From a virus (Duplodnaviria; Caudoviricetes): a stretch of 56,237 nucleotides of DNA. Numbering within the stretch: position 1 is the first letter of the stretch; every line of letters starts with the position of its first letter. Shown piece by piece: positions 4,367 to 17,505 of this stretch. The stretch lies in IMG/VR virus record IMGVR_UViG_3300032462_000007, positions 1 through 56,237 of that record. The stretch is one strand, 5' to 3'. Below the pieces are notes generated by a model. It was given only the letters and a program-made list of their open reading frames with translations, was not told the DNA's origin and did no database searches. The position numbers and the translations under genes are program-made.

Positions 4367-4376
4367 TAGCCCTTAA

Positions 4377-4404
4377 ACAATCTGAGTAAATTGTAAAACT
4401 GCTC
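4377..4404 (+). ncRNA. Compact pseudoknot motif, copy 1
   Basis: ACAAT-CTGAGTAA-ATTGT-AAAAC-TGCTC. Confidence 0.55.
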
Positions 4405-4410
4405 ACACTT

Positions 4411-4487
4411 GGTGTAGTGGTGCAATTGGTTAGCATATCTCCCTGTCGAGGAGAGGGTTGCGAGTTCGAGCCTCGCCTACACCGCCA
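4411..4487 (+). tRNA. tRNA-Asp (GTC) with encoded CCA
   Basis: GGTGTAG/CTACACC acceptor, TCTCC-CT-GTC-GA-GGAGA anticodon arm, GCCA end. Confidence 0.92.
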
Positions 4488-4604
4488 GCTTTTTGGCCGC
4501 GCCCCGTTACCCAACCGTTATTTAAGAAGGATCATAAATCCCCCTAAAATGTCAGACCTCTATGGTATGATGAAATCATAACCTACTAATGAAAGAAGTA
4601 TAAA

Positions 4605-5360
4605 ATGCCTAATTGGGTGTATAACTCTTTAGCCGTATCTGGTGATAAAGAAGAATTAACAAAATTAGTTAATAAGATGAATAAGCCTTATGAGGCTAAT
4701 CATTGGCAGTATAACAAAATGGGAGAGTATGTAGAAGAAACTACAATTTATTCAAATCCCGTTTTTTCTTTTAGAAACATTATCTGTCCAACAAATTTAG
4801 ACTCTTACAACACCAAGCCAGAATTTAATAAGCCAACAGGGAATGTTGTGGCAGATTTAATGGAGGGAATTAGAACTGGTGAAGATTGGTATAATTGGAA
4901 CTTACGCAACTGGGGAACTAAATGGGACGTTTCAGTTGCAGACGATTTCGAGTATTCAGATACGTCAATGGAACAGCAATCTGAAACTGATTTAATTTAT
5001 TATTTCAATACTGCTTGGAGTCCTGTTGATAGTGGTATGCTAATTCTATTATCAGAAGAATTTCCAACTCTTGAAATGGAATACCATTGGGAAGAAGAAC
5101 AAGGTTGGGGTGGCGAAGCCGACATTTCTGACGGTGGCTTTATAGTCACTAAAGAATGGGACATTCCAGAATCACACGCAGATAATTTAGCGGTTCGTGA
5201 TTATTGCCATAACTGTGAGAGTATGGAAATCTTAGACCTTAAGACAGCAACAGAGAAAGAATTAAAAGGGTCGTTAGAAGATATTTATTCTGACTGCCCA
5301 CCATTTGCCGAGTACAAAGAAGTACTTGACAAATTACAACTGCCTACAGAAAAAGGATAA
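4605..5360 (+). CDS. DUF1281/YubB ferredoxin-like domain protein
   Basis: MPNW..N, DWYNWN..NWGTKWD, FNTAWSP and EEEQGWGG motifs. Confidence 0.75.
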   Translation: MPNWVYNSLAVSGDKEELTKLVNKMNKPYEANHWQYNKMGEYVEETTIYSNPVFSFRNIICPTNLDSYNTKPEFNKPTGNVVADLMEGIRTGEDWYNWNLRNWGTKWDVSVADDFEYSDTSMEQQSETDLIYYFNTAWSPVDSGMLILLSEEFPTLEMEYHWEEEQGWGGEADISDGGFIVTKEWDIPESHADNLAVRDYCHNCESMEILDLKTATEKELKGSLEDIYSDCPPFAEYKEVLDKLQLPTEKG

Positions 5361-5365
5361 AAAAA

Positions 5366-5821
5366 ATGGAACTTTCAACAACAACAGTAGAACCAGAAAT
5401 TCTGGAGTATGTAGAAAATGCAAGTATTGTTTTAATAGATACGCCTTATGTTTATAGCACTACTAAGACAGAATTATTTACAGCAAACGAATTATCTTTT
5501 ATAGTCCGTGACCAAAAACGGGTAAATTTAGTTCTTGCTGGTCGTCATAAAGATACTGAATTACTCAAAGAATACCTCATAGAAAACTATGAGGAAATTG
5601 GGGAAGACCACGCTGTTGCTATTGCAGAAATAATGGAAATTGACTTAACAACAGAACACGAAGTAACTTTAAATCTCTCAATTACTGCAACCCTAACACT
5701 ACCAATGGGTAAGACACCAGATGACTATTCAACTTATGATTTTGATGTTGAATTATCTGCAAATGATTCTGAAATTGAAATTCAATACTTTGATTCAAAC
5801 ATAGATAGTATGGATTATTAA
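5366..5821 (+). CDS. Hypothetical acidic protein
   Basis: AAGGA RBS, 151-aa ORF. Confidence 0.75.
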   Translation: MELSTTTVEPEILEYVENASIVLIDTPYVYSTTKTELFTANELSFIVRDQKRVNLVLAGRHKDTELLKEYLIENYEEIGEDHAVAIAEIMEIDLTTEHEVTLNLSITATLTLPMGKTPDDYSTYDFDVELSANDSEIEIQYFDSNIDSMDY

Positions 5822-5844
5822 AGTGTCCTTTAGTAGGTAGAGGA

Positions 5845-5872
5845 GATTCCTGGGTATGAATTAAAACTGCCC
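5845..5872 (+). ncRNA. Compact pseudoknot motif, copy 2
   Basis: GATTC-CTGGGTAT-GAATT-AAAAC-TGCCC. Confidence 0.55.
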
Positions 5873-5966
5873 CCATAAAATTGATCCAGCTCTTTTGAGC
5901 CGCGCCCCCGTTACCCAATCGTTATTTAAGAAGATTGAGAAATCCCCCTAGATATATATAATAAAC

Positions 5967-5995
5967 TTGACAAACACCCCAAAATATGATAAGAT
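5967..5995 (+). promoter_or_regulatory. SigA-type promoter
   Basis: TTGACA-N17-TAAGAT with extended TG. Confidence 0.85.
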
Positions 5996-6034
5996 AAACT
6001 TATTAAACAATCTACCTTATAGGAGAAAATAAAA

Positions 6035-7024
6035 ATGGCTGATAACATAGAAATTATAAATGGTGTTGGGTCTTTCTATTCCCTGCGTGAACCTGCTTGG
6101 CATGGTTTGGGCACAGTAGTAAATGATGAACACACTACAAAAGAAGTTTTAGGAATTGCAAATCTATCTAATTGGAATGTTAGATTAGAGGACATTGTTC
6201 TACCTAAAAACTACACAACAAGCAAATCTAATTACATGGTTGTTCGTGACCACCCAGAAACTGGACAGCCAGACGTGCTATCCATTGTTGGTGACCGCTA
6301 CCAAACTTTGCAGAATGAAGAATTGTTTGCTTTTGCAGATAACTTACTTGACGGGGCTCGTTGGGAAACAGCAGGTTCATTAAAGAATGGACGAGTTGTA
6401 TTTGGCTCTCTTGCTCTTGAGCGTGAGACCGTACTTGACCCAACAGGTGTTGCAGATGTAGTAAATACTTACTTACTTGTAAATACCTCACACGATGGCT
6501 CGGTTGCAGTTCAGGCAAGCATTACACCTGTTCGTGTTGTATGTTCAAATACTCTTAATCTTGCTCTGCAAGGCGTTAAGCAGTCTTTCAAAATGCGACA
6601 CACCTCAACACTTGACGGACGTATTCTAATGGCTCGTGAGGCTCTGGGGCTTGCAAACACCTACATGGACGAGTTTGACAAAATGGCACAAGAACTTATT
6701 GAACAAGAAATCACTAAGTCTACTTTTGCTAAGATTGTTGCAACTGCTTACCCAATGCCTAATTTGGAAACAAAAGGTGCTATGACAAAATGGGAGAACA
6801 AAATTGAATTGCTTGATGAGATTTTTTCATCAGATACAAATGCAATGATTAACAATACCGCTTGGGGTGCTTTCAATACCCTGACAGAACGCCTTGACTG
6901 GTATCGTCCTGCACGAGGTGGGAACAACGAGGGTATCCTCGCAAGTGCAAGTGGCTTCGACCCTGTAATAAATGCAGAAAAGAATAGACTGCTAAGCATT
7001 GTGCGACAGGTTGCTTTTGCATAA
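6035..7024 (+). CDS. DUF932 family phage/plasmid protein (TIGR03299-like)
   Basis: PAWHGLG, Y..LQN, ETAGSL..G, NTSHDGS, TPVRVVCSNT, RHT and TAWGAFN motifs. Confidence 0.85.
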   Translation: MADNIEIINGVGSFYSLREPAWHGLGTVVNDEHTTKEVLGIANLSNWNVRLEDIVLPKNYTTSKSNYMVVRDHPETGQPDVLSIVGDRYQTLQNEELFAFADNLLDGARWETAGSLKNGRVVFGSLALERETVLDPTGVADVVNTYLLVNTSHDGSVAVQASITPVRVVCSNTLNLALQGVKQSFKMRHTSTLDGRILMAREALGLANTYMDEFDKMAQELIEQEITKSTFAKIVATAYPMPNLETKGAMTKWENKIELLDEIFSSDTNAMINNTAWGAFNTLTERLDWYRPARGGNNEGILASASGFDPVINAEKNRLLSIVRQVAFA

Positions 7025-7034
7025 ATAAAAATAT

Positions 7035-7138
7035 TCCACCTGAGCAAGTGGATACTAAAATAAACTACTCACTCCCCACTGACACGGGAGTCTAATCAAA
7101 AGGTGACTAAGCCCTGAGCATGGCAGTGGAAAAGGCTC
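7035..7138 (+). ncRNA. Cluster of three small RNA structures (pseudoknot copies 3 and 4 flanking a different hairpin)
   Basis: TCCAC-CTGAGCAA-GTGGA...AAAC-TACTC; ACTCCC-CACTGACAC-GGGAGT; GCC-CTGAGCAT-GGC...GCTC. Confidence 0.5.
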
Positions 7139-7324
7139 ACTTTTTGCACCGCGCCACTAATTATCTTATTAGTCATTTAAGAACAATTAAGAGCAGCTCT
7201 GGATTTCTCTGGATCAATCAATCTTATTAGATTAAAAATGTTTATTAAGTAATATGCCAAATGCCCTTGAAATTGTCAGACCCTTGTGGTAGGATACAAG
7301 TATCTACTAAGAAATGGAAAATAT

Positions 7325-7588
7325 ATGACATCTTTAACTACAAGATTTGAAGTTGTATTTGACGAGGACTTTATTATAAAGTCTATGTTGGAAACAGGAG
7401 AATATGGAATTGGTGGCTACCCGATTTCCGAGGAGGCAATGATTGAGTTTGTAAAAAATATATCATTTGGACTTGACCACGAAGCAAATTTTGAGGACGA
7501 GTACCCTGGGCAATCCAAGTCCCTGTCTATAACGAATGACAATGGAGATTGTTATTTCTATTGGGCAAAAGATCAGCAGGTAAACTGA
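7325..7588 (+). CDS. Hypothetical protein (likely start MTSLTT)
   Basis: Downstream of the promoter at 7274-7295; the track start 7286 lies inside that promoter. Confidence 0.6.
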   Translation: MTSLTTRFEVVFDEDFIIKSMLETGEYGIGGYPISEEAMIEFVKNISFGLDHEANFEDEYPGQSKSLSITNDNGDCYFYWAKDQQVN

Positions 7589-7840
7589 CAATGAATAAAG
7601 AATTAGACTATTTATTTAATTCAGATGAAGATGACACCGTTAGTTTTGATTGGGGAACTCAACCAATATTAGTTGTTGGCAAAACCAAGAAGCAAATCTG
7701 GAATGAAAAGAAAAACAAATTTGAATGGAAAGAGGTAAAGAAGTGATTACAGTAAAATATGGGAAATATAAATATATGTGTGACTATGGACATGGCAGTG
7801 ATAGAGATGAAGATAGTTTGATTAGATATTTCTGTGGCAA

Positions 7841-8125
7841 GTGTATACAACTAACAATGAACAAGAAGGGGAAGTAATGGAACTAGTAACAGCATCAACC
7901 TATGACTTAGTTGCAACCTATCAAATTGAAGCAGAAGCAACATACTCTATGATAGTAGATTTTGATGAACTTAATGAATATATTGCTGCTTATAAATTAA
8001 ATATAAATGGTGAGGTAGATAGAATTCAGATTTATGAACATTTCCTGGAAAAATACGGGTATGAAGAATGTTCAGACTCACAAGACCTACGCAGAACTAT
8101 TGAAGAAGTAGAGGTATACCGATAA
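7841..8125 (+). CDS. Hypothetical acidic protein
   Basis: ORF in a tightly packed + strand operon. Confidence 0.6.
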   Translation: MYTTNNEQEGEVMELVTASTYDLVATYQIEAEATYSMIVDFDELNEYIAAYKLNINGEVDRIQIYEHFLEKYGYEECSDSQDLRRTIEEVEVYR

Positions 8126-8316
8126 TGTATATGTATAACTACACAGTAGAGTTCGTATTAGAAAGTGCAGTCATTCTTACACACCTATCTTTTGATGAGC
8201 CAGATCAGCCTCACGATGTTGTAATCGAAGAAGCCCGTCAGAACTTGATTAAAGACTACAAGATTGACCCAGAAGTTTTATACCTACAAGACACAATTGT
8301 GCATGAGGAGAACTAA
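8125..8316 (+). CDS. Hypothetical protein
   Basis: TAATG coupling, GAGG RBS. Confidence 0.65.
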   Translation: MYMYNYTVEFVLESAVILTHLSFDEPDQPHDVVIEEARQNLIKDYKIDPEVLYLQDTIVHEEN

Positions 8317-8384
8317 TGACATTAGTACTGGAAGTTATGACCTGCAAGACTGAGAACTATCTAATGCCTCTGGAGGTAAGTTAA

Positions 8385-8819
8385 GTGATTGATTTATCAG
8401 ATGTAGTTATTGACTATGTAATGGCTATTCCCACCTCCTGCCAGGCTCCAGAGTTCTATATTGGTCCGAATGGGTTCGAAGTATATGCAACCGTCTCTAA
8501 GGGCGACAGAGAAATCAACGTGGCTTGTAATGGAGAGATGTACTTAACCGTGCCCAACATTTATAGTGACGGACTATTAGTAGATACTGATAATATCATT
8601 AGATACCCTTCAGACCTCCATGAATATGGTATAGATGATGATATCCGATTGAACCAGTTTATTAAAACAGTTAGTAATGCTGGCTTTCAGGTATGCCACG
8701 AAAATCCTTGGTGGGAGATATTCTCTGATAATGACCCTGACGGTATCATATGTGAGACATTCTATGGTGCTATTGATCAGGCAACCGAATTACTATTCGA
8801 TGAGGAGTATTGGGCATGA
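8385..8819 (+). CDS. Hypothetical acidic protein
   Basis: GGAGGT RBS, GTG start. Confidence 0.7.
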   Translation: MIDLSDVVIDYVMAIPTSCQAPEFYIGPNGFEVYATVSKGDREINVACNGEMYLTVPNIYSDGLLVDTDNIIRYPSDLHEYGIDDDIRLNQFIKTVSNAGFQVCHENPWWEIFSDNDPDGIICETFYGAIDQATELLFDEEYWA

Positions 8820-9028
8820 ACTTAAATCACTATGATGTCTTTGACCATATTCTACCAAATTGTTTAGAAGCTGGGGACATAATTAAATGGGAAGGGGAAG
8901 TCTATACAGTTAAGGACTTTGATATGCTATCTGATGGTTTTATGATATATGCCATAGATGAAATGGAAGAAGCAGTAGAACTACTAATACCCGATGATAC
9001 CGTACTTTCATTAATGGAAGAACAATAG
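8816..9028 (+). CDS. Small acidic protein
   Basis: GAGGAG RBS, ATGA overlap with the upstream gene. Confidence 0.65.
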   Translation: MNLNHYDVFDHILPNCLEAGDIIKWEGEVYTVKDFDMLSDGFMIYAIDEMEEAVELLIPDDTVLSLMEEQ

Positions 9029-9030
9029 GA

Positions 9031-9060
9031 TTTGACAATTCTGTCAAAATAGTGTAAAAT
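9031..9060 (+). promoter_or_regulatory. SigA promoter overlapped by a palindrome
   Basis: TTGACA-N17-TAAAAT; TTTGACA-ATTC-TGTCAAA inverted repeat covers the -35. Confidence 0.7.
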
Positions 9061-9321
9061 TGATACAAGACAACCTTCAGGAGAAAAATGACAAGAGAAA
9101 CACTACGCAAGTTAAAGAAACAACGATACACCTCATTAGAAAAATGGGGAGAGACTGATCGTGTGGTTATCCGAGACGGCTTAGGTCATTTCGTATACAA
9201 CACCAACCTAACTTCATTACGCCGCAACAAGGTAATGCGTTCCCGCTAACCAGGCATACAGGTGGGCAGGGAGATCCTCTGCCCCCTAAATGTCAGACCT
9301 CTATGATAGAATGAGAGAACT

Positions 9322-9564
9322 ATGGGAAAATCACAAATAGAAAGCATTTCAAACAAAATCGTTGCACTTTTAGCAGACGGTAGAATAAGTCAGGCGGATT
9401 GGAGAATTTGGATACCAAAACGATTGACAGAACATAATAAAATGATAGTTGCAAATGCAAAGAACTTAGCAGACGGAATAAACGAGGCATTGGAAAATGA
9501 CGAAATTGAAATTAGTAAAGAACTCTTATTCGATTACCAGACAGGAAAACAAAATGGACAATAG
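9322..9564 (+). CDS. Hypothetical protein
   Basis: Follows the promoter at 9291-9312. Confidence 0.65.
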   Translation: MGKSQIESISNKIVALLADGRISQADWRIWIPKRLTEHNKMIVANAKNLADGINEALENDEIEISKELLFDYQTGKQNGQ

Positions 9565-9832
9565 AGAAATGGGTAATGTTGAAAAAGCAGAAATCATTGT
9601 GCAATTTACTCAAGATGCTTTTAATGATGATTTGTATTCTGACTTTTTTGATTATAATGATTTAGGTGTACCACTTTCTATTGCTGTTCAGCAAGAAATG
9701 GTTATTCTAACTGATGCTGGAGAAGGAGTATTACAAGAAACTTGGAAAGAATTATGCACAATGTTTAATGCAGACCCAGAAAAAGAATATGAAAGTATTG
9801 ATGATTTAATGTTGCTAGAAGAATTAGAATAA
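9554..9832 (+). CDS. Hypothetical protein (YNDLGVPL motif; likely start MDNREM)
   Basis: AGGA RBS before ATG 9554. Confidence 0.65.
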   Translation: MDNREMGNVEKAEIIVQFTQDAFNDDLYSDFFDYNDLGVPLSIAVQQEMVILTDAGEGVLQETWKELCTMFNADPEKEYESIDDLMLLEELE

Positions 9833-9840
9833 AATTCTTG

Positions 9841-9915
9841 GGGGTGGTAGCTCAGTTGGTTTAGAGCAAATGACTCATAATCATTCGGTCGTCAGTTCAA
9901 GTCTGACCCACCCCA
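9841..9915 (+). tRNA. tRNA with CAT anticodon (Ile2-like or elongator Met)
   Basis: GGGGTGG/CCACCCC acceptor, AATGA-CT-CAT-AA-TCATT, GTCAG-TTCAAGT-CTGAC; lacks the initiator GGG/CCC anticodon stem. Confidence 0.9.
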
Positions 9916-10013
9916 CCTACAATGCCAAAAAAGACCGCGCCCACATTTTAAACATTCAACATTATTAAGAATAAGCCATTTTTCCCCTGGATATTTTGGG
10001 GAATATTAGATAT

Positions 10014-10042
10014 TTGACAAATAAAGACATAAGGAGTATAAT
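10014..10042 (+). promoter_or_regulatory. Perfect SigA promoter, leaderless transcript
   Basis: TTGACA-N17-TATAAT, ATG 6 nt later. Confidence 0.85.
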
Positions 10043-10048
10043 AGATAT

Positions 10049-10576
10049 ATGACCATTGTAATAGGGCTTATTCAAGAGGGTATTATATATATGGGATCAG
10101 ATAGAAGTATGAGTGATTTATATAGTATATCTTCTCCTATTACCCCGAAAATAAAAAAGAATGGTCAATTTTTAATTGGTTATGCATCTTCAAGAGGTAC
10201 TGGTCAAATAGCTCATTATATGGATTTTCCAAATGTTCTTAAAAAGGATGTTGATAAATATATGAGAACTGAATTTATATTTGCCCTTAAAAAAGAGATT
10301 GATAAATTTGGTTTAGATATATCAGATGATGATAAAGCTGCTGCAGATTTTCTGGTAGGAATTCATGGAAGACTATTTGATATCTCTACTAATGAATGGC
10401 AGGTAAATGAATATGATAAATATACTGCTATTGGAGCTGGTAGTTCATTTGCAATAGGTTCATTAGATACCTCAGAATCATGGAAAGATCCTGTTAAGAA
10501 AATAAAGAAAGCTTTAGATGTAGCTATTAATAACAATCCTAATTGTAAATATCCTATTGACATTTTACATTCATAG
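10049..10576 (+). CDS. Ntn-hydrolase, proteasome-beta/HslV-like peptidase
   Basis: N-terminal M-T-I-V-I-G nucleophile Thr, GSDR, AIGAGSSFAIGSL. Confidence 0.75.
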   Translation: MTIVIGLIQEGIIYMGSDRSMSDLYSISSPITPKIKKNGQFLIGYASSRGTGQIAHYMDFPNVLKKDVDKYMRTEFIFALKKEIDKFGLDISDDDKAAADFLVGIHGRLFDISTNEWQVNEYDKYTAIGAGSSFAIGSLDTSESWKDPVKKIKKALDVAINNNPNCKYPIDILHS

Positions 10577-11542: not shown

Positions 11543-11617
11543 GTCTTATCCTTATAAAGAAATTCTGCCCTTGCACCACATCTTTCAGTGGGCAGAGGGG
11601 CAGAACAATACATCTTA

Positions 11618-11646
11618 ATTATACCAGCTTTAATCAACATTGTCAA
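11618..11646 (-). promoter_or_regulatory. Perfect SigA promoter followed by a long hairpin (11563-11605)
   Basis: TTGACA-N17-TATAAT on - strand; TTCTGCCC...GGGCAGAA stem. Confidence 0.8.
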
Positions 11647-11963
11647 TAGGCTCTTCAAGATCTGGATAGTATACCATTTCATCATTTGTTGCAAAACAAA
11701 TAGAGCAGGTAATTTGACCATCTAGATCTAATACAAAATCACAACTATGCATATCTTATCCTATCTTATATAGATGCTTGTTTCAAGCAAAGGGTATACT
11801 ATTTCTGCCGATTTTTCGAGTTAAATAAAAGGCTTCCCACATTTACAATTTAAGAGATATTTATTTTTAATTGGAAATGAGCAATAGTGTTTTAAGCTAA
11901 AGGTATTGCTTAAATAGATAGCGACATAGTAATATGCATTAATTAGTTTATTAAACAATCCCA

Positions 11964-12311
11964 TCATGAGAAGGAGTCCCCACAAGCGCATGAGCCACCA
12001 GAATTTGGGTTGTCTATTGTGAAACCTTGCTTCTCAAGAGTGTCGTCATATTCGATCACAGAGCCGCTAAGATACGGTATACTCGTCCGATCTACGACCA
12101 AATCTACGTCATTTACTTTTGTGTTGAAGTCACCATCAAGGACTCTATCATCAAAGAATAGCTGGTAACGTAATCCAGAGCAACCTCCAGGTTGAACGGA
12201 TATGCGAAGGCTTAAGTCATCTCTACCCTCTTGGTCTAAAAATTGCTTAACTTTTGTAGCAGCAGTTTCTGTAATTAAAATGCTATTTTCTTGAATCGTC
12301 TCTGTTGTCAT
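11964..12311 (-). CDS. iscA: A-type Fe-S carrier, IscA/ErpA/HesB family
   Basis: GGCSGLRYQL.FD and NPN..GSCACGDSF with all three Cys. Confidence 0.92.
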   Translation of the reverse strand: MTTETIQENSILITETAATKVKQFLDQEGRDDLSLRISVQPGGCSGLRYQLFFDDRVLDGDFNTKVNDVDLVVDRTSIPYLSGSVIEYDDTLEKQGFTIDNPNSGGSCACGDSFS

Positions 12312-12317
12312 ATTTTA

Positions 12318-12346
12318 ATTATACTCTCTATTGGTAAAATTGTCAA
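12318..12346 (-). promoter_or_regulatory. Perfect SigA promoter, leaderless iscA mRNA
   Basis: TTGACA-N17-TATAAT-TAAAAT-ATG. Confidence 0.85.
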
Positions 12347-12567
12347 ATTATAAAAGTCAGTTTGCCAGGCCATTACCTGTGGGAATATGTGCAACTGACA
12401 AACACATATTGCTAAAAAAATAGGAGGTTCTTAGTAGTATAACTATTGACGAGATAATTACTTGCTAGGATTTATCCTACAAAACTGCAACAGCCCCTTT
12501 ATGAATTCAGTGTGTCACACCTATCCAATAGTCTCCCTCTGGAGACGTTCGTGTTGATCAGTTTTAG

Positions 12568-12640
12568 CTCTCAGAGCAAGATTCGAACTTGCGACAAATC
12601 GATTAACAGTCGATCACTCTACCAGCTGAGTTATCCGAGA
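12568..12640 (-). tRNA. tRNA-Asn (GTT)
   Basis: Reverse complement: TCTCGGA...ATCGA-CT-GTT-AA-TCGAT...GCAAG-TTCGAAT-CTTGC-TCTGAGA-G. Confidence 0.92.
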
Positions 12641-12756
12641 TTGGCTATCAAACCTTTGCATATCCAGTTTTTTTCTTATTCATAGATCCAGGCTTATTGT
12701 ACCCATTATTATTTGGTACATGGCTTTTACGGATTTCTAAGGCTTTAAGAACTTTT

Positions 12757-12936
12757 TCATGGTGCTTTCCCACTGGTATCGCCTTTCTTTTTTAGCCCCT
12801 CAAGTTCACTTTCAAAGGCCTTAATAGCTTGGTTTGCTTGAACTTTTAATAATGCCATCTGGGTTTCGTACTGGCTTGTAATTTGGCCAATTCTTAGTTG
12901 TAATTCTTGTATTACCATTTCTAGTGTTTCAGACAT
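12757..12936 (-). CDS. Small coiled-coil protein (likely start MSETLE)
   Basis: ELQLRIGQITSQYETQMALLK; AAGGGA RBS. Confidence 0.6.
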   Translation of the reverse strand: MSETLEMVIQELQLRIGQITSQYETQMALLKVQANQAIKAFESELEGLKKKGDTSGKAP

Positions 12937-13057
12937 TTTCTTTATCCCTTTCTTAGGATGTTGTCTCCGCTTTTTTGCATTAATAATATTATTTTGTAGA
13001 ATTACTAATAGTTTGAATACTAACATTCCTACTAATACTGCAGTAAATAGTTACATA

Positions 13058-13420
13058 TTATTTCCTAATACCTTCTAAAATTGCAAGCCTTTCATCATAC
13101 CTCGTCATTTCGAGGATTAACTCTTCTACTGCGTGACGCAAATTGTACTCAGTTTCTGGAACTTCAATCTTATCCTCTATTTTATCCAGTCTTTGGAATA
13201 TTGATTCTATGGATTTTGCCGCCCAAGTATTGATTGGCTTGTACGCTTTACCGTCTCTTAGGCCATGTTTATGACCTAAGTCGTAACCTTCATGAAACCT
13301 ATCCTCTAAATTGAGATTAGATTTTTCAAGTTTACTGTTGCGTTCTTTTAGACCTGCCTTGTAACCCATGTCATATTGTTCCTTGTTATGAGCAATTAAA
13401 TCTATATATGTTACTGTCAT
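13058..13420 (-). CDS. Hypothetical protein with GYxxG repeats (likely start MTVTYI)
   Basis: AAGGA RBS before ATG 13420. Confidence 0.6.
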   Translation of the reverse strand: MTVTYIDLIAHNKEQYDMGYKAGLKERNSKLEKSNLNLEDRFHEGYDLGHKHGLRDGKAYKPINTWAAKSIESIFQRLDKIEDKIEVPETEYNLRHAVEELILEMTRYDERLAILEGIRK

Positions 13421-13435
13421 TTTGTTTCCTTTGTT

Positions 13436-13520
13436 TGTAACTATTGTCCTATTAAGGGTTATCATTGTGTAACTATTTTGCTATTAAGGGTAGTTTTATG
13501 TAACTATTTTGGCATTAAGG
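13436..13520. repeat. Three tandem 31-32 bp repeats
   Basis: TGTAACTATT..ATTAAGG units at 13436, 13468, 13499. Confidence 0.75.
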
Positions 13521-13573
13521 CAATAATCTCATCTGCCATTTTTTCCCAATTCAATTCATGCCAGGATTCAAAA

Positions 13574-13816
13574 TCAATACCCTGTAGATGCTTCTAGACA
13601 ATATTCTTGATGCCAAGCTTCATAAGCCTGTTTTCTAAGGTCATTTTCCTTTTTCGTTTCTATTAGGAAATTTGAGAAAATATCTATCGCCCTTGATGAA
13701 GTTAGAATAGTTTCTCCAACTATCTTTTCAAGTCTAATAAGTCTTTTAATAAGAAACCATACTGCTACCACCAATGAAAATTGGGATAACAATATACATC
13801 CAATAACAATATTCAT
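13574..13816 (-). CDS. Membrane-anchored small protein
   Basis: N-terminal hydrophobic helix. Confidence 0.6.
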   Translation of the reverse strand: MNIVIGCILLSQFSLVVAVWFLIKRLIRLEKIVGETILTSSRAIDIFSNFLIETKKENDLRKQAYEAWHQEYCLEASTGY

Positions 13817-14031
13817 TATTTATTTGACTTATCTGCTTTGTACTTCCAAGATGCAATACTAAAATTAGGCTTTAAATCTTTCTTAATACCTTTTACAATT
13901 TCTTTTGCTTCCGCCTCAGTTTTCACATTGTAGTGAAAAGACCGTCTTGAACCCAAAGGTTCTATAACAATTACTTTTAATGAATCCATATCTTAATAAT
14001 ACCACTTTTCTATTAGGTTGTCAAGTTATAA

Positions 14032-14058
14032 AGGCAGTTTATTATCTTACCCAGGATA
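14032..14058 (-). ncRNA. Compact pseudoknot motif, copy 5
   Basis: TATC-CTGGGTAA-GATA-ATAAAC-TGCCT on - strand. Confidence 0.5.
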
Positions 14059-14153
14059 TCTAATTAAACTATTAAATCAACAAGAGAACTTTATATTTGA
14101 CTTTACATATGTTATCTAAAGTCATGTGTTTTAGAGCTTCTCTACCTGTGTAT

Positions 14154-14747
14154 TTATGATTTAACAGGCAAAGTATATCTGGAGTAAACTACTCTTTCTG
14201 ACCAGATTTTTTCAATTCTTACATATCCACCAGGTTTGGGGGAATGAACAATTTGACCATCTCCTATAAATATTCCATTATGATATGCGTGTCCACCTTT
14301 AGTTAAGAAAAATACAAGATCTCCTGGGACTGCTTCCTCAGCAGATATTCTTGTCATTTTTTCTAATTGCTCACCTGTGGATCTTGGAATTAATATTCCT
14401 TGCTTCTTATAGACATATTTAGTATATCCAGAGCAGTCAAAACCTCTTGGTGTAGTTCCGCCCCATGAATATGGGGTTCCAATATAGGATTTTCCTGTTT
14501 TAACGATATCTTCACTTAAAGATATTCTTTTAAGAGACCTTGAAGAGTCTACTCTGGCTCTTGTAATTAAATATTTATCAATATCTAATTGTATGATGTC
14601 GGAAGAAATATATCCTTCCCTTTCTGTTGTACTATTAGCACTGTTAGGACTGTAGCCTACTGGTAGCTTTGAATCATTTGTTGTTAAAACAAACAATGCA
14701 AGAAGCGCAATAGGGGCAGTCCAAAACAAGGTTTTAGACTTCATCAT
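14154..14747 (-). CDS. Secreted NlpC/P60 (C40) peptidase
   Basis: Signal anchor; [35 protein letters not shown]. Confidence 0.9.
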
Positions 14748-14809
14748 TAAATAGTAGCACACTTAGTGGCTAAAAGTCAAGTTATGTATGAATATTAAGA
14801 CAATAAAAA

Positions 14810-15322
14810 TTATTTACTTTTCTTTTTTATAATACGACTTTTACTTTTCTTTTTTATAGGAGACCTTTTTACTTTTTTTTTTACAACTGGAGCTACAACT
14901 TTTGCTTTTACTTTATTAACAACAGAAGCTGGCTTAGTTCCAAGTATCGTGGATGGATCCAGGTCTTTTCCTGAACCCCATCTAACATTGTCTCTCATTT
15001 CAAAATGAAGGTGAGGACCTGAAGAGTTTCCAGTGTTACCTGATTTTCCAATACTTTGTCCTTCTTTAACAACATCTCCTGGTTTTACCAGCTTTTTCGA
15101 TAAGTGTGCATAAATTACCCACCCACCATTTACTTTTTGTACCAGCTGAGTGCCATAAGCAGAACCCCAGTTAGCAGACTCAATTTTTCCATCAGTAACA
15201 GCAACAATGTCTGTTCCAGTTGGAACTGCAAAGTCAACTCCTGTGTGATATCCTTTTGACCACATTTTTCCAAGTTTTTTATAAGGTGTAGTGACCTTTC
15301 CATTTTTAATTGGTGAACCCAT
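14810..15322 (-). CDS. M23 peptidase, probable endolysin
   Basis: HTGVD, YAHL, GNSSGPHLHFE; Lys-rich C-terminal tail. Confidence 0.9.
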   Translation of the reverse strand: MGSPIKNGKVTTPYKKLGKMWSKGYHTGVDFAVPTGTDIVAVTDGKIESANWGSAYGTQLVQKVNGGWVIYAHLSKKLVKPGDVVKEGQSIGKSGNTGNSSGPHLHFEMRDNVRWGSGKDLDPSTILGTKPASVVNKVKAKVVAPVVKKKVKRSPIKKKSKSRIIKKKSK

Positions 15323-15347
15323 TTAAATCATTCCTTTTTTTTATAAT

Positions 15348-15380
15348 GGAGGGGGGGGCCTTTTGAGCCCCCCCACTCTC
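15348..15380 (-). terminator. GC-rich hairpin between the holin-like and M23 genes
   Basis: G-run / C-run inverted repeat. Confidence 0.45.
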
Positions 15381-15395
15381 TTACTCTATTGTACC

Positions 15396-15707
15396 CTATT
15401 TAGATTTCTTGTCTACTGCAGCAAATGCTGAATTAATTTCATCAGAACTTAGCTTGCCATCATCAAGAAATGATCTGGCAATTTTTTCAAGCACTGTAGC
15501 AACTCCAAGAGTTCCTGCCATAATTACTGCTGTCGCTGTATCAATTCCAACAAGCGATCCTGCACCAATAATCGATAGTCCAGAAGCAGCAAATACTGCG
15601 ACTATTCTAAAAAATATATTTACTAAGCTCGTTGCCGATTTAGATCCAATTATATCTTCTCCCGTTACAGTATCAATATTGTTTATATTAATTTTACCTT
15701 TTGTCAT
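15396..15707 (-). CDS. Holin-like membrane protein
   Basis: Two hydrophobic segments, directly upstream of the M23 gene; GAGGAGG RBS. Confidence 0.6.
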   Translation of the reverse strand: MTKGKININNIDTVTGEDIIGSKSATSLVNIFFRIVAVFAASGLSIIGAGSLVGIDTATAVIMAGTLGVATVLEKIARSFLDDGKLSSDEINSAFAAVDKKSK

Positions 15708-15892
15708 TTTGTTTCCTCCTCTTTGTTTTCTCTTATTCCCATTGAAAATAACCAGACGATTGTTGCCCAAAGTATTGCCCAGCCAACAACTACTTTTGCT
15801 GAGCCATCTAACACTGCCCAGGCAATAAACATTCCAAGTAAAGTAAAGGTTTGATTCAATATTTCAAGTGACCATTTTTTTATCCATTTCAT
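15704..15892 (-). CDS. Small two-TM membrane protein
   Basis: TFTLLGMFIAWAVL...VVGWAILWATIVWLFSM. Confidence 0.7.
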   Translation of the reverse strand: MKWIKKWSLEILNQTFTLLGMFIAWAVLDGSAKVVVGWAILWATIVWLFSMGIRENKEEETK

Positions 15893-15893
15893 C

Positions 15894-17186
15894 TTATTTC
15901 CCCCTTATATTATTTTTTGTTGAAAGTCCAACGGCTATCTGTGCCACGATTACAGAAGCAACAACAACTTGCTGGGACTCTTTTCTTTTTTCTAGTGTCA
16001 TATCAACACCAATATTGGCAAGGGCTTTTATAGCTTTGCCTGGATCTGTAAAGACTGTTAGTAAAAGTTCTCCTGCGTCTTCAAATATTTCAATTGCATC
16101 AGCAACTTCAGCAGTAAGTATTACACCATTTTTCAACAGAACTGGTTGATCTGGCGGTAAATTTTCATAATCAAGTCCTGAATTTTCAAAATCCTCAAAA
16201 GAGATAGCATCCATTGAACCATATTTAGTCAAAAGTTCTTCAAGAGTTTGCTCTTTAGTTAGTTCATTATTTATGATATTATTATTAGATGAAGGAATTT
16301 CTATCTCAATTGGACCAGGAGTTATCGGGGTTGGAGTAGGTGAAGGCTCTGTCGGAAATTGTGAAGTTTGTGAGGGTTCTGGGCTTGGCTCTGATGGTTG
16401 GGGTGACGGCACTACTGTTGGCGCTGGTTCTGATTGTTGGGGTGACGGCACTACTGTTGGCGCTGGTTCTGATGATTGCTCTGTCTCAGGGATGGCAGTA
16501 GGAGTTGGAGTAGGCTCAATAGGGCAGGGAGACGGTTCATAGACTGTGCTACCATCCCAACACTGTATTGGAATAGCAGGAGGATCTGTAAAACTTGGAG
16601 ATGTTTGCTGAGGCTCCGCTTCTGTCGGTGTTCCACCGTTTACATCAAAGGCTGCTTCCATTGTTACGATAGGTCCGCCTTGTACATATCTAATGCCCCT
16701 TCTAATGTTGTTTGGTGTCCAACCAAGTGTTGTAATTTCTCCATGCCAAGATCCGTTGCTAAACTTATTAATAACCAGTCTAATTTGTGTTAGCTCACCA
16801 GTAGATTGTGGAAATGGGCGAACCGACCATTCAATACAAAATGAAGAATCGTTATATCCATACGAGGTATAAGCTCCTTCTCCGAAGGACACCCAGTCGT
16901 AACCAGCCAAGGACACAGATGGGGTTTCTGGATAGTCCCAGAATGTACCATCTGGCTGACCAAAAGTCATTGTTCCATTTGTACTATAATAAACTTGATT
17001 GTAATCAGTTTCACCCAATGTCAAACTAAATGGTAAATTCATTTGGAACGAACCATCGTCATCACCAGTTTGAGTAACCATGTTGCATGTGAGCGGGGTG
17101 CTTGCTTGCGTTGCTGGAACTACAAACAACAATATACTACCAAGTATCATTGGAATTAAAATTAGGTAGGAAGTTATTTTTTTCAA
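15894..17186 (-). CDS. Secreted/surface protein with beta-rich N domain, Pro-rich stalk and C-terminal hydrophobic anchor
   Basis: Signal peptide; GDDDGSF..NLPFSL...YYSTNGTMTFG (NIDO-like); P/T/S/E-rich linker; VVVASVIVAQIAVGL. Confidence 0.75.
   Translation of the reverse strand: MKKITSYLILIPMILGSILLFVVPATQASTPLTCNMVTQTGDDDGSFQMNLPFSLTLGETDYNQVYYSTNGTMTFGQPDGTFWDYPETPSVSLAGYDWVSFGEGAYTSYGYNDSSFCIEWSVRPFPQSTGELTQIRLVINKFSNGSWHGEITTLGWTPNNIRRGIRYVQGGPIVTMEAAFDVNGGTPTEAEPQQTSPSFTDPPAIPIQCWDGSTVYEPSPCPIEPTPTPTAIPETEQSSEPAPTVVPSPQQSEPAPTVVPSPQPSEPSPEPSQTSQFPTEPSPTPTPITPGPIEIEIPSSNNNIINNELTKEQTLEELLTKYGSMDAISFEDFENSGLDYENLPPDQPVLLKNGVILTAEVADAIEIFEDAGELLLTVFTDPGKAIKALANIGVDMTLEKRKESQQVVVASVIVAQIAVGLSTKNNIRGK
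16390..16474. repeat. 39-bp tandem duplication encoding SEPAPTVVPSPQ
   Basis: Units at 16397 and 16436. Confidence 0.85.
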
Positions 17187-17271
17187 CTTGTTCTATAGAC
17201 CCCTTGTTAGATTTATATCTAACAAGTCTATTATATCATTGGTAATTAATTCATCATGCTATTATTGATAA

Positions 17272-17445
17272 ATGGAAGATTTTTTAAAAGACTTGGATCA
17301 AGAATTAGACTCTAAGTTGAATTTAGAATTGATGGTAATGGAAATGACATCTTTGTCAAAGGAATTAAATATAGAATTACAAGATGTTCTTGAATGTGTT
17401 ACAGAGATTCTAAAAGAAGTTAAGGTTCAGAAGGATCCTGAATAG
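17272..17445 (+). CDS. Small acidic protein (57 aa), lone + strand gene in the - strand arm
   Basis: TGCTATTAT extended -10 then ATG 6 nt later; MEDFLKDLDQELDSKLNLELMVMEM... Confidence 0.5.
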   Translation: MEDFLKDLDQELDSKLNLELMVMEMTSLSKELNIELQDVLECVTEILKEVKVQKDPE

Positions 17446-17446
17446 T

Positions 17447-17474
17447 GGATAGTTTTATTACTTGTCCAGGTAAC
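17447..17474 (-). ncRNA. Compact pseudoknot motif, copy 6
   Basis: GTTAC-CTGGACAA-GTAAT-AAAAC-TATCC on - strand. Confidence 0.5.
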
Positions 17475-17505
17475 TTTCCATCCTAAGGAAACTTATACTA
17501 AAACT

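Follow-up and report, generated by a model that had tools for sequence, protein, structure and literature searches.

A putative intergenic RNA pseudoknot common to many unrelated phages

Six copies of the motif in a phage contig

Six copies of an H-type pseudoknot of 28-37 nt were identified in the window, which is the whole 56-kb phage contig (56,237 nt); four are canonical and two are divergent. The motif comprises a variable stem (S1, 3-5 bp in the window copies), an 8-nt loop of the form C-UGRRYA-U, an A-rich linker with AAAC at its 3' end and a tail, UGYYCA, which pairs with the loop over 5-6 bp (S2). All six were found where the initial annotation had placed them, and the mechanical ORF calls bore out its description of the copies as intergenic and in the sense of the upstream gene (6/6), with copies 1 to 6 lying 10, 23, 10, 86, 95 and 31 nt 3' of its stop codon. 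The covariance model used for scoring (R1) was built from 150 instances, to which the four canonical copies belong; the 29-37 bits of its spans at 4376-4407, 5844-5875, 14029-14060 and 17444-17475 are thus scores of training members.

Copy 1 (4377-4405, + strand; 37.2 bits) is canonical and follows ORF 3887-4366. Its S1 (4377-4381/4390-4394, ACAAT/ATTGT) encloses the loop CTGAGTAA at 4382-4389, and the linker AAAAC (4395-4399) leads to the S2 3' strand TGCTCA (4400-4405), giving 6 bp including one U.G. Directly 3' lies tRNA-Asp(GTC) at 4411-4487 (+), and the earlier remark that one copy stands 6 nt before a tRNA-Asp is correct for this copy, the 6 nt being 4405-4410 when the motif is ended at 4404. 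A hairpin, TACCAA-TCAAG-TTGGTA (4349-4365, +), is located 11 nt upstream, and its 3' arm overlaps the first two stop-codon bases of the ORF. Its link to the pseudoknot is uncertain, and this distance falls outside the 0-4 nt range of hairpins preceding S1 elsewhere. Copy 2 (5845-5872, +; 36.4 bits), also canonical, follows ORF 5366-5821; S1 is 5845-5849/5858-5862 (GATTC/GAATT, one U.G), the loop at 5850-5857 is CTGGGTAT, the linker AAAAC occupies 5863-5867 and the S2 3' strand TGCCC (5868-5872) forms 5 bp. It is followed on its 3' side by a GCCGCGCCCC box and a sigma-70-like promoter.

The two divergent copies both lie downstream of the DUF932 gene at 6035-7024. Copy 3 (7035-7071, +) has S1 at 7035-7039/7048-7052 (TCCAC/GTGGA), loop CTGAGCAA at 7040-7047, a 13-nt linker ending in AAAC (7053-7065) and the S2 3' strand TACTCA (7066-7071) with one C.A mismatch. 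R1 gave only two partial matches (15.0 and 10.1 bits) because the linker is 8 nt longer. Copy 4 (7111-7139, +) is the most divergent: S1 is reduced to 3 bp (GCC/GGC), the loop at 7114-7121 is CTGAGCAT, and the linker AGTGGAAAA (7125-7133) lacks AAAC. The tail GGCTCA (7134-7139) forms 5 bp with the loop, G7134 remaining unpaired and facing a loop A; a T-run follows S2, and R1 matched the hairpin only (9.5 bits).

The remaining copies are on the minus strand. Copy 5 (14032-14058; 29.2 bits) is canonical, with S1 at 14058-14055/14046-14043 (TATC/GATA), loop CTGGGTAA at 14054-14047, linker ATAAAC at 14042-14037 and S2 3' strand TGCCT at 14036-14032 (5 bp, two wobble pairs); it follows an NlpC/P60 gene (14154-14762) and is itself followed by TTGACA-17-TATTAT. 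Copy 6 (17446-17474; 33.1 bits) has canonical spacing, with S1 at 17474-17470/17461-17457 (GTTAC/GTAAT, one U.G), loop CTGGACAA at 17469-17462, linker AAAAC at 17456-17452 and S2 3' strand TATCCA at 17451-17446 (5/6 pairs, one C.A), and lies past a methyltransferase gene (17506-18072).

CTGRRYAW alone was not enriched in the window (36 matches vs 36.55 expected). The full descriptor, in which the loop must be flanked by a stem of 3 bp or more and matched by a complementary tail, was enriched: it gave 6 matches, whereas 300 dinucleotide shuffles averaged 0.55 and reached 4 at most. A looser 28-nt tail window added a seventh site at 30785 (-), inside a called ORF.

Helix pairing and distribution across phages

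When only the loop/tail pattern was fixed, 128 of 136 IMG/VR matches carried a flanking stem of at least 3 bp; a deliberately mismatched pattern gave 79 loci in total and a stem in only 18 of 67 unique matches. Loop GAG pairs with tail CUC, and mismatched loop/tail combinations stayed at background. Among stem-bearing instances, loop GGA was accompanied by tail TCC in 59 and by other tails in 5, and loop GGG by CCC in 67 vs 6 G.U-compatible tails. Pairs in S2 were counted in a random 150 of 271 descriptor matches with the tail left free (AU 86/GC 53; GC 120/AU 20; CG 122/UG 17/UA 4), and 89.8% of the S2 cells were paired, vs 70.6% in shuffles and 27-39% in slid registers. The distal S2 pair exchanged A-U for G-C in 16 instances, and single non-Watson-Crick S2 positions were G.U in 34 and A.C in 11. 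The co-variation of loop and tail initially described over 3 bp is real in its pairing but extends over 5-6 bp. Both stems covary across the wider collection, and these hundreds of independent instances lend strong sequence-based support to a functional structured RNA pseudoknot.

With one nucleotide to cross a 6-bp stem and 4-5 nt to run along a stem of 4-5 bp, the geometry of the phage motif fits the rules of classical H-type pseudoknots. S1 ranges from 3 to 7 bp in the wider collection, and extra linker nucleotides in phage copies sit 5' of the invariant AAAC. Each hairpin by itself is weak (S1 -1.0 to -3.6 kcal/mol; S2 -2.6 to -6.0 kcal/mol). Conservation is found at the S1/S2 junction, where the pairs are nearly constant (n=150; C-G closing 141/150, A-U 147/150, C-G/U.G 139/150) together with a junction U (87%) and AAAC, while the distal helices vary freely. 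S2 is followed by A (67%) and then C (45%); the first 9 nt are G-poor (2-13%), with T at 39-44% from +3 to +7.

The six repeats are copies of a tiny intergenic pseudoknot common to many unrelated phages. The family is not peculiar to this genome: 369 distinct instances were found in 263 IMG/VR loci. The motif was read in seven cultured phages (Mycobacterium, Arthrobacter, Synechococcus, Nostoc, Paracoccus, Lactobacillus and a gut Firmicute), and variant loops were present in Staphylococcus and Vibrio phages. Canonical carriers comprise T7-like, T4-like and siphovirus genomes and a Microviridae genome, with hosts among Actinomycetota, Cyanobacteria, Alphaproteobacteria and Firmicutes, a breadth that argues against a lineage-specific phage protein as partner. 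Among related cyanophages the distribution is sporadic; S-RIM4 and S-SM2 have the motif, the downstream leader and the gene in common, and their upstream genes differ. In the Lactobacillus phage phiEF-1.1 the motif is closely preceded by an intrinsic terminator and has the scaffold gene downstream, and in Staphylococcus phage B166 it lies upstream of hypothetical ORF41, itself ahead of the major capsid gene. A Vibrio phage and an Acutalibacteraceae phage have their annotated genes on the strand opposite to the motif, which we counted against the roadblock considered below. Rfam, including preQ1, pistol, hammerhead, twister and hatchet, gave nothing on the copies in a 61-nt search, even at E <= 10, and a match of the kind that would have removed its novelty was thus not found.

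Placement relative to neighbouring genes

In the collection, 331 of 369 instances are intergenic, oriented as the upstream ORF in 296/320 and as the downstream ORF in 280/309. The distance from stop codon to loop has a floor at 9 nt (47 instances at 9, 28 at 10 and only 4 below; n=298), which indicates that the fold stays outside translated RNA. No reading-frame preference relative to the upstream stop was observed (0/1/2 = 85/66/54), nor was a slippery site. In all, 175 instances have a start codon with its ribosome-binding site no more than 90 nt away, mostly at 15-40 nt, and a same-strand tRNA starts 0-14 nt downstream of 36 of the 369, 21 of these being tRNA-Asp. The flanking genes are of many kinds, falling into 101 protein clusters upstream and 100 downstream, with no integrase, other common neighbour gene or recurrent toxin-like cluster seen among them. 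Among the neighbours it is the upstream stop codon, and not a gene downstream, that is most constant.

Of 355 instances, few have a terminator-like hairpin within 90 nt (4 upstream and 7 downstream). A hairpin of at least 5 bp ends 0-4 nt before S1 in 93/366 instances, and the mean fold z-score was -1.23 for the upstream 40 nt vs -0.13 for the downstream 40 nt; hairpins starting 0-5 nt after S2 were not enriched (83/365 vs a shuffled mean of 93.1).

Related elements and possible role

The luteoviral -1 frameshifting pseudoknots of BWYV and PLRV are about 28 nt long; S1 has 5 bp, the short crossing loop contains a C, the junction U is unpaired and an A-rich loop occupies the S1 minor groove. 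They are situated within coding sequence, a slippery site preceding them by 5-9 nt. In the phage motif the size, S1, crossing C, junction U and A-rich loop are the same, but it lies past stop codons, with no frame preference and no slippery site seen. The autoregulatory pseudoknot of T4/T2 gene 32 is a compact H-type fold whose crossing loop is a single nucleotide; unstructured RNA and a ribosome-binding site come next. The pseudoknot is bound by gp32 and occurs as a single copy upstream of one gene. These features of fold and 3' context are common to the phage motif, which, unlike it, occurs in many copies beside unrelated genes, with SSB genes upstream and not downstream. The luteoviral elements are cited in PMC10321173 and the gene 32 pseudoknot is mentioned in PMC10690425. 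The preQ1-I riboswitch (RF00522) is likewise an H-type fold of ~30 nt, whose P1 has 5 bp, whose 3' linker is A-rich and ends in C, and whose junction is conserved; unlike this element of queuosine-related 5' UTRs, the phage motif has no Rfam match, follows stop codons, precedes tRNAs and does not use its S2 3' strand as the ribosome-binding site. ToxI-type antitoxin RNAs (type III) are tandem 36-nt repeats beside a toxN-like gene, and phages are known to mimic them. The resemblance is that of a small pseudoknotted RNA with an A-rich segment, and the antitoxin-like decoy proposed initially found no support: the phage units are single and dispersed, form no tandem arrays, and their neighbours belong to many unrelated families.

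As judged from sequence, the phage motif comes nearest, among known elements, to coremin, an Xrn1-resistant RNA of eukaryotic RNA viruses, and above all to the Watson-Crick variant of coremin. Coremin (xrRNA-C) is reported in PMC6546385 and PMC10520033 from beny- and cucumoviruses as well as from many other RNA viruses of eukaryotes, and PMC10321173 names the variant xrRNA-WCC. The coremin sequence, given as GUCCGAAGACGUUAAACUAC (PMC10520033), has in common with the phage motif a GUC/GAC stem (the commonest phage S1, 88/369 instances), an unpaired C as first loop nucleotide, a loop end A-D (A then U/A) and the linker UUAAACU, the coremin spacer being (G)UUAAACU. The 11-mer GACGUUAAACU is present exactly in 17/369 phage instances. 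The spacer adenosines of coremin are described as essential and are thought to occupy the S1 minor groove. In the xrRNA-WCC from Sanxia picorna-like virus 5, loop GGAG pairs with spacer CUCA (PMC10321173), which equals the GAG/CUC pairing of the phage motif; both pair with nucleotides after AAAC. Both elements occur in intergenic regions, coremin also in UTRs and at ends of coding regions. Coremin is described as stalling Xrn1 and scanning ribosomes and as stimulating frameshifting, and bacterial RNase J1 is blocked in vitro by a flaviviral xrRNA (PMC5760640). There are also differences. The phage loop is 8 nt long and has its G at position 3 (CUG), the one required in coremin being at position 2; S2 has 5-6 bp, the coremin equivalent 3 or fewer; and the carriers are DNA phages with hosts lacking Xrn1. 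Phages and bacteria have 0 occurrences in the available text of PMC10520033, and the available parts of PMC6546385 and PMC10321173 do not mention them.

Our favoured reading, drawn by analogy and at a probability of about 45%, is that the motif acts as a protein-independent mechanical roadblock, set at cistron borders, against processive RNA decay. Each copy would be transcribed together with its upstream gene and then fold into a compact H-type pseudoknot, in which S1 (3-5 bp, free in sequence, usually C-G closed) would stack on S2, in which loop nucleotides 2-7 pair with the tail over 5-6 bp. A single loop C would cross S2, another nucleotide, usually U, would remain at the junction, and the AAAC-ended A-rich linker would run along S1. 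The fold would halt a processive RNA-degrading or scanning machine on polycistronic phage RNA. Decay would most likely be blocked in the 5'->3' direction (that of RNase J, or of RNase E in its 5'-end-dependent scanning); as this is the direction blocked by coremin, downstream RNA would be the part protected. Vibrio is not known to have RNase J, and since a Vibrio phage carries a variant of the phage motif, RNase J would not be the sole target. Counting against the roadblock, the motif lacks the second hairpin that coremin needs directly 3' of its spacer, the junction core also looks as a ligand- or protein-binding site would, and the constancy of the upstream stop codon suits protection of upstream RNA equally well.

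That last point leads to a somewhat unlikely alternative, a barrier to 3'->5' exonucleases that would cap the 3' end of the upstream cistron and prolong its life, like intercistronic REP hairpins and terminator hairpins. The cap would form after a downstream endonucleolytic cut, by RNase P at an adjacent tRNA or by RNase E/Y in the G-poor 9 nt after S2. The loop is indeed pressed on the upstream stop codon (9-20 nt in 160/298), a nearby co-directional ORF upstream is missing from only about 10 of the 331 intergenic instances, and all six window copies are at ends of promoter-defined units. Upstream genes include Hsp20 (27), DUF932-like (42), SSB and ribonucleotide reductase, for which abundance is expected. 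However, coremin, the nearest known relative, blocks the opposite direction, and the S-RIM4/S-SM2 pair retains the downstream and not the upstream genes. A terminator hairpin already precedes the motif in phiEF-1.1, and in six cases a terminator-like one comes within 3-10 nt after it, so that a 3' cap would be superfluous. The 3' stabiliser or processing signal first suggested is of the kind that we favour, but by analogy with coremin the protected RNA would be downstream and not the upstream 3' end.

The conserved junction, with distal helices free to vary, might instead be the core of a very small preQ1-I-like aptamer, the operator of a conserved protein or a self-cleaving ribozyme of a new kind. 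The sporadic spread among cyanophages recalls that of small ribozymes in phages. We regard this as unlikely: there is no expression platform, the ribosome-binding site lying 10 or more nt beyond S2 and not within it; Rfam, ribozyme families included, was silent on the copies; the neighbouring genes are mutually unrelated; and any natural self-cleaver known to us is far larger than about 30 nt.

Recognition by a universal endonuclease, as a tRNA-like punctuation, appears quite unlikely. Here the S2-on-S1 stack would mimic an acceptor/T arm, and RNase P or RNase Z would cut beside it and separate the cistrons. Stacked, the helices add up to 10-11 bp and have a 3' single strand, loop U-G (positions 2-3) and the A and C after S2 recall the -1/+1 and discriminator rules of tRNA precursors, the 36 instances noted above directly adjoin a tRNA 5' end, and a universal enzyme would fit the host range. 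Against this, ACCA follows S2 in only 19/369, there is no T-loop equivalent, S1 length varies, RNase P cutting in the crossing loop would destroy the structure, and there is no enclosing helix (best flank helix mean 4.33 bp vs 4.24 in controls).

A DNA-level element, whose folded single strand would be a recombination, priming or module-boundary site shuffling gene modules, on the model of attC sites or the PeSL cassettes of T4-type phages, is highly improbable. The motif does lie at mosaic junctions (flanks similar upstream only in 308 instance pairs, downstream only in 188 and on both sides in 185) and is present in an ssDNA Microviridae genome, but mosaic phages would show such junctions for any intergenic element. 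Moreover, G.U exceeds A.C in S2, the motif strand follows the genes, the ribosome-sized gap after stop codons has no DNA-level rationale and no integrase or other common neighbour was seen. A terminator or attenuator made of the S2 hairpin and a U-rich stretch after it, with T-runs after some instances including copy 4, is hardly credible, as S2 alone is weak, most instances lack a U-tract, T7-like carriers use their own polymerase and the next genes or tRNAs start within 0-40 nt.

Returning to the roadblock at cistron borders, the close resemblance of the motif to a plant-virus RNA that stops RNA-degrading enzymes suggests that the pseudoknot probably protects adjacent phage RNA against degradation. 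Decay that starts in one cistron would thereby be kept out of the neighbouring RNA, whether this is the next cistron or a tRNA precursor.

The six copies and the genome that carries them

The six pseudoknot copies were re-read at their sites, which lie at 4377-4404, 5845-5872, 7035-7071 and 7111-7139 on the plus strand and at 14032-14058 and 17447-17474 on the minus strand. The initial annotation was confirmed in placing each of them 3' of an ORF on the same strand and in giving 6 nt between the end of the first copy and the tRNA-Asp gene. By itself, the loop word CTGRRYAW was not enriched in the window (36 observed vs 36.55 expected); what set the six copies apart among its sites was that a 3-5 bp stem flanks the loop and that the tail is complementary to it. 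Six sites matched the combined descriptor, compared with 0.55 on average and never more than 4 when the sequence was dinucleotide-shuffled 300 times. A site at 30785 (-) was left uncounted (3-bp stem, inside a called ORF, passing only a looser 28-nt tail window).

The annotated pairing between loop and tail exists, and its extent had been underestimated. Loop positions 2-7 (U-G-R-R-Y-A) pair with a tail U-G-Y-Y-C-A that starts immediately 3' of AAAC, and the unpaired loop nucleotides are one C crossing this loop-tail helix (S2) and one U or A at the junction. Four window copies are canonical. The copy at 7035-7071 diverges by a 13-nt linker and one C.A mismatch, and the copy at 7111-7139 by a 5' hairpin stem (S1) of 3 bp and the absence of AAAC. 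Every window copy stands at the end of a promoter-defined unit, and the spacing between copies ranges from 70 nt to 7 kb. A total of 369 distinct instances were gathered from 263 loci, and given the fact that 199 of these loci hold a single copy, four to six copies per genome are unusual. The proposal of a ToxI-like type III antitoxin decoy, which would call for a tandem array next to a toxin gene, gained no support: the window copies are dispersed, most loci of the collection are single-copy and no recurrent family was seen among the clusters of neighbouring genes.

The 56,237-base window is the complete record for its source genome, which has a G+C content of 35.6%. The genome is phage-like, and its gene content includes a split DnaE-type polymerase, DnaB, primase, RecA, proteins with NlpC/P60 and M23 peptidase domains, and four tRNA genes. 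When 8 kb of the window were compared with the phage collection by megablast, no deposited phage proved closely related. The runs listed for the stretch are 12 of DNA type, sampled in fresh water or estuaries, with none recorded as RNA. The polymerase is split at 32488-36579 (-) into a 429-aa PHP and N-terminal part (35293-36579) and a 753-aa finger/HhH part (32488-34746), and an HNH endonuclease gene at 34691-35266 stands between them. An FtsZ/tubulin homologue of 310 aa (18050-18979, minus strand) and two giant ORFs of 1507 and 2402 aa without a Pfam family (43872-56154, minus strand) were also observed.

A box of about 50 nt, GGCCGCGCCCCGTTACC...TTATTTAAGAAGG, is located at 108-158, 1689-1739, 2816-2866, 4495-4545 and 5899-5949, with weaker copies at about 300-345, 7148-7200 and 9935-9990. 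It is conspicuous against the 36% G+C background of the genome, is invariably preceded at close range by a pseudoknot copy, tRNA gene or hairpin, with an early promoter about 40 nt downstream, and may be a regulator-binding site or an UP-like element. In relatives, the comparable AGCTGCGCCCC is found directly 3' of the pseudoknots. The early promoters, AAA(A/T)TGTCAGACC-N-TG-TA-GAT, comprise at least ten near-identical sites of the extended -10 type, all on the plus strand of the first 10 kb (166-198, 352-384, 658-687, 1746-1778, 2207-2239, 2873-2905, 3831-3860, 4541-4573, 7265-7297 and 9282-9314). A 24-nt word, TGTAACTATT..(C)TATTAAGG, occurs in three copies at 13436-13522 with a spacing of 31-32 nt; this array begins within the 5' end of the ORF at 13058-13465 (-), extends upstream of it and could be an operator or iteron array. 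The covariance model R1, built from 150 instances, gave a weak match at 12553-12579 (-) (15.6 bits, E 0.11), which overlaps the 3' end of tRNA-Asn. At this site, UAAAACUGAUCA comes after a hairpin of 4 bp whose loop has 3 nt; linker and tail are motif-like, and the motif loop is missing.

Pairing and covariation

Covariation was analysed in a gap-free alignment of 150 instances drawn at random from 271 descriptor matches. The descriptor fixed CTG, a 4-bp S1, the spacing and AAAC and left the tail free; S1 pairing is built into this alignment, and independent support for S1 comes from the stem-free and loop/tail scans. The obtained results bore out the annotated pseudoknot with covarying stems, with 89.8% of cells paired under this structure. 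The share was 27-39% in slid registers and 70.6% in shuffles, and none of the 500 shuffles came up to the real alignment. Two-sided changes were identified at 9 of 11 pairs overall, including four of the six pairs of S2. S2 pairing was not demanded by the descriptor, and the counts at its pairs were AU 86, GC 53 and other 8; GC 120, AU 20, CG 2 and other 4; and CG 122, UG 17, UA 4 and other 7. The closing C-G pair of S1 was present in 141 of the 150 instances.

Loop and tail were further scanned in IMG/VR. Among stem-bearing instances, loop GGA, with any pyrimidine pair allowed in the tail, was accompanied by UCC in 59 cases vs 5 others, and loop GGG by CCC in 67 vs 6 others, all six of which were G.U-compatible. 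A mismatched control, loop GAG with YCC, returned 79 loci in total, with a stem in only 18 of 67 unique matches and match lengths evenly spread, as chance predicts; mismatched loop and tail combinations are at background level. A structure-only descriptor with no sequence constraint gave 1065 matches in 8.4 Mb, of which 239 carried CTG...AAAC and 15 CTA...AAAC, and a follow-up scan showed the distal S2 G-C pair changed to A-U in 16 variant instances. Single non-Watson-Crick positions in S2 were G.U in 34 cases, A.C in 11 and other in 1. The excess of G.U over A.C, together with the co-orientation with genes, favours an RNA on the given strand.

The loop lengths of an H-type pseudoknot must allow both helices to form at once. 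In the motif, S2, of 5-6 bp, is crossed by 1-2 nt, S1, of 3-5 bp, has 4-6 nt or occasionally more alongside it, and compensatory change was observed in both helices, as expected of an H-type pseudoknot. Neither hairpin is stable by itself (S1 alone -1.0 to -3.6 kcal/mol, S2 alone -2.6 to -6.0 kcal/mol). An Rfam match, which would have cost the motif its novelty, was not found on the copies in Rfam 15, whether at gathering thresholds or at E <= 10 over 14 kb or over 61 nt. Whatever its role, the motif represents a strongly covarying structured RNA family of wide occurrence for which Rfam 15 has no entry.

Occurrence in phages and placement between genes

Homologues of the DUF932 protein encoded at 6035-7021 were found in 37 IMG/VR loci at 58-87% identity. 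A loop-plus-stem descriptor with a free tail recovered the motif recurrently in these loci; AAAC, which the descriptor did not demand, and a tail that fits the loop were present in almost all cases. A scan of IMG/VR for the commonest loop and tail, with no stem demanded, gave at least 120 loci, and 128 of the 136 listed matches bear a stem of at least 3 bp with highly varied S1 sequences. The same pattern in 596 Gb of prokaryotic genomes had a stem in 28 of 120 matches, in assemblies of several phyla, and these prokaryotic matches are mostly due to chance. As a crude check on a link to RNase J-bearing hosts, with only 47 candidates per genome scored, model R1 was run on bacterial genomes and matched 4 of 151 from the phylum of a Clostridium genome, one of them the seed, and 0 of 151 from the class of a Pseudomonas genome.

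Carriers were found by BLAST with 32-nt instances, after which each site was read. The canonical motif was identified in Mycobacterium phage Labelle, Arthrobacter phage Molivia (in the order SSB gene, motif, tRNA-Gly), cyanophages S-RIM4 and S-SM2, Paracoccus phage ParMal1 and Nostoc phage NMeng1 (both Autographiviridae), Lactobacillus phage phiEF-1.1, a gut Acutalibacteraceae phage and a pig-gut Microviridae genome. A variant loop was found in Staphylococcus phage B166 (the one inspected of 83 matching Staphylococcus records) and Vibrio phage D456 (one inspected of 27). Model R1 located one full copy each in Labelle, Molivia and S-RIM4, and a BLAST match in Aeromonas phage ZPAH14 was rejected as chance. 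The motif, a downstream leader and a small ORF are common to S-RIM4 and S-SM2, whose upstream genes differ; the related S-RIM2, S-SM1 and S-P4 are without the motif at the corresponding junction, and its distribution is therefore sporadic. In Vibrio phage D456 and the Acutalibacteraceae phage NatCom_11578, the motif lies on the strand opposite annotated small genes, which reflects either wrong gene calls or antisense transcription of the motif.

By crude ORF calls, 331 of the 369 instances were intergenic, and the motif had the same orientation as the upstream ORF in 296/320 cases and as the downstream ORF in 280/309. Of the apparent exceptions in orientation, about half proved to follow a co-directional ORF that had been missed and that ended 5-17 nt upstream. 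The spacing between stop codon and loop displayed a sharp floor (47 instances at 9 nt, 28 at 10, 16 at 11 and only 4 below 9; n=298), and S1 therefore begins 4-5 nt past the stop codon. Given the dimensions of the ribosome, this is the end of the mRNA entry channel of a terminating ribosome. Neither a frame preference nor slippery sites were seen, and a readthrough or frameshift signal was rejected on these grounds. On the downstream side, a start codon with a ribosome-binding site followed within 90 nt in 175 instances, mostly at 15-40 nt, the ribosome-binding site falling 3' of S2; a same-strand tRNA gene followed at 0-14 nt in 36 instances, and the 9 nt 3' of S2 were G-poor. The flanking genes formed 101 upstream clusters, led by DUF932-like (42) and Hsp20 (27), and 100 downstream clusters, all mutually unrelated, and a gene-specific association was rejected.

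Terminator-like hairpins were rare in the vicinity (4 upstream and 7 downstream, of 355), so the motif normally lies inside polycistronic RNA. Across the collection, the 40 nt upstream of the motif were unusually structured (mean z-score -1.23; 40% below -1.5). In 93 of 366 instances, a hairpin with 5 bp or more ended 0-4 nt before S1; the stop codon is frequently part of this hairpin, which may be an optional third helix. A window hairpin at 4349-4365 lies 11 nt upstream of the first copy, beyond that range. No helix enclosing the motif was found, the best flank helix averaging 4.33 bp vs 4.24 in controls. Among instance pairs with similar flanks, 308 share the upstream flank only and 188 the downstream flank only; the motif marks mosaic junctions.

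Likeness to coremin and a possible role in RNA decay

Coremin (xrRNA-C) is an element of eukaryotic RNA viruses whose class is defined by a 5'->3' exoribonuclease stalled just 5' of its first hairpin. According to PMC10520033, the type sequence is GUCCGAAGACGUUAAACUAC, in which a 3-bp hairpin bears a loop of YGAD or YGNNAD consensus and the 10-nt spacer is conserved; Xrn1 resistance is lost when the loop G is shifted, and the surveys treated there covered RNA viruses only. The second hairpin was reported to be absolutely required for Xrn1 resistance (PMC6546385, PMC10520033). A screen yielded Watson-Crick variants with base pairing between loop and spacer, GGAG-CUCA being a natural example, and its authors' model is an H-type pseudoknot whose S1 minor groove accommodates the adenosines of the spacer (PMC10321173). 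Scanning ribosomes, too, are stalled by coremin, which also promotes frameshifting; this agrees with how strictly the phage motif is kept out of translated regions.

The phage consensus, (c)GUC-CUGAGCAU-GAC(g)-UUAAAC-UGCUCA, shares with coremin the stem, the unpaired first C, the A-U loop end, the UUAAACU spacer and the GAG/CUC pairing. The first hairpin of coremin has 3-5 bp of GUC/GAC type, and the phage S1 has 3-7 bp, with GUC...GAC in 88/369 instances. A spacer of the coremin kind (about 10 nt, an essential AAA, and 3' CUAC or the Watson-Crick partner of the loop) is likewise present, and the phage tail pairs with the loop as in the Watson-Crick variant, although the exact coremin spacer is confined to a minority (TTAAACT in 60/369); the 11-mer GACGUUAAACU occurs in 17/369. 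The phage loop, C-U-G-R-R-Y-A-U, resembles that of coremin in its first Y and last A-D, but its G is at position 3 and not at position 2. Unlike coremin, the phage motif has an S2 of 5-6 bp, and it has no counterpart of the second hairpin: a hairpin of at least 4 bp was found 0-5 nt past S2 in 83/365 instances vs a shuffled mean of 93.1, and the downstream 40 nt had a mean z-score of -0.13. The shifted G, the longer S2 and the missing second hairpin keep the phage motif outside the coremin family; by analogy, it probably works like coremin.

From this analogy and the placement of the motif, we propose, at a probability of roughly 45%, that the folded motif would act by itself, with no protein, as a roadblock that stops processive RNA decay at the borders between cistrons, the blocked direction most likely being 5'->3'. 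A cap against 3'->5' decay that protects the upstream cistron would fit the stop-codon proximity equally well, and we regard it as distinctly less probable. A small aptamer, operator or ribozyme at a conserved junction seems improbable. No copy matched the preQ1-I riboswitch (RF00522) at E <= 10, and the ribosome-binding site lies downstream of S2; the sole weak PreQ1 match (E 9.7) falls off the copies, at 15265-15303. The Rfam 15 models of hammerhead, twister, twister-sister, pistol, hatchet and HDV-like ribozymes gave no match at gathering thresholds or at E <= 10. We give slightly less credence still to tRNA-like punctuation cut by RNase P or Z, since ACCA follows S2 in just 19/369 instances and ACC in 47/369, which speaks against a minihelix with an NCCA end; ARAGORN called no tRNA at the copies. 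The flank sharing among instance pairs would agree with a module boundary at the DNA level, which we consider very improbable. A transcription terminator is the least probable reading, with stems of only -1.0 to -6.0 kcal/mol, T-runs after a minority of instances and no copy reported by the terminator scan on the motif strand (one match, 7052-7035, lies on the strand opposite the copy at 7035-7071).

The roadblock to RNA decay can be put in a more specific form, again by analogy with coremin. The motif would then be the first natural exoribonuclease-resistant RNA class of bacteriophages, a protein-independent pseudoknot of about 30 nt with the coremin fold, at which bacterial 5'->3' decay by RNase J or by scanning RNase E would come to a halt between cistrons; we advance this tentatively, as possible rather than probable. 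Bacterial RNase J1 is unable to pass a flaviviral xrRNA in vitro (PMC5760640), and the Vibrio phage variant argues against strict restriction to RNase J hosts. A full-text literature search, which took in passages of PMC10690425, found no description of the motif, of coremin or of xrRNAs in phages. The motif may appear unnamed in this 2023 catalogue of candidate viral RNAs, about 10,000 in number, in which one entry reportedly overlaps tRNA-Asp once in 27 sites (PMC10690425).

The function is directly testable, as cultured, tractable carriers exist. Coremin is without a solved structure, and hundreds of covarying natural variants with a Watson-Crick S2 would aid modelling or crystallisation. 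If the proposed function is true, the motif would also provide a very small portable element for RNA stabilisation in bacteria. The coremin fold would be a cross-kingdom solution, convergent or exchanged, of plant, fungal and insect RNA viruses and phages, and the xrRNA concept, drawn from eukaryotic RNA viruses, would come to include DNA phages and the RNases of bacteria. The motif would be an RNA-decay insulator of bacteria-infecting viruses that nobody has looked for, a 30-nt RNA that serves as a general punctuation mark of phage operons and sets the relative lifetimes of adjacent cistrons and phage tRNA precursors in hosts of several phyla.
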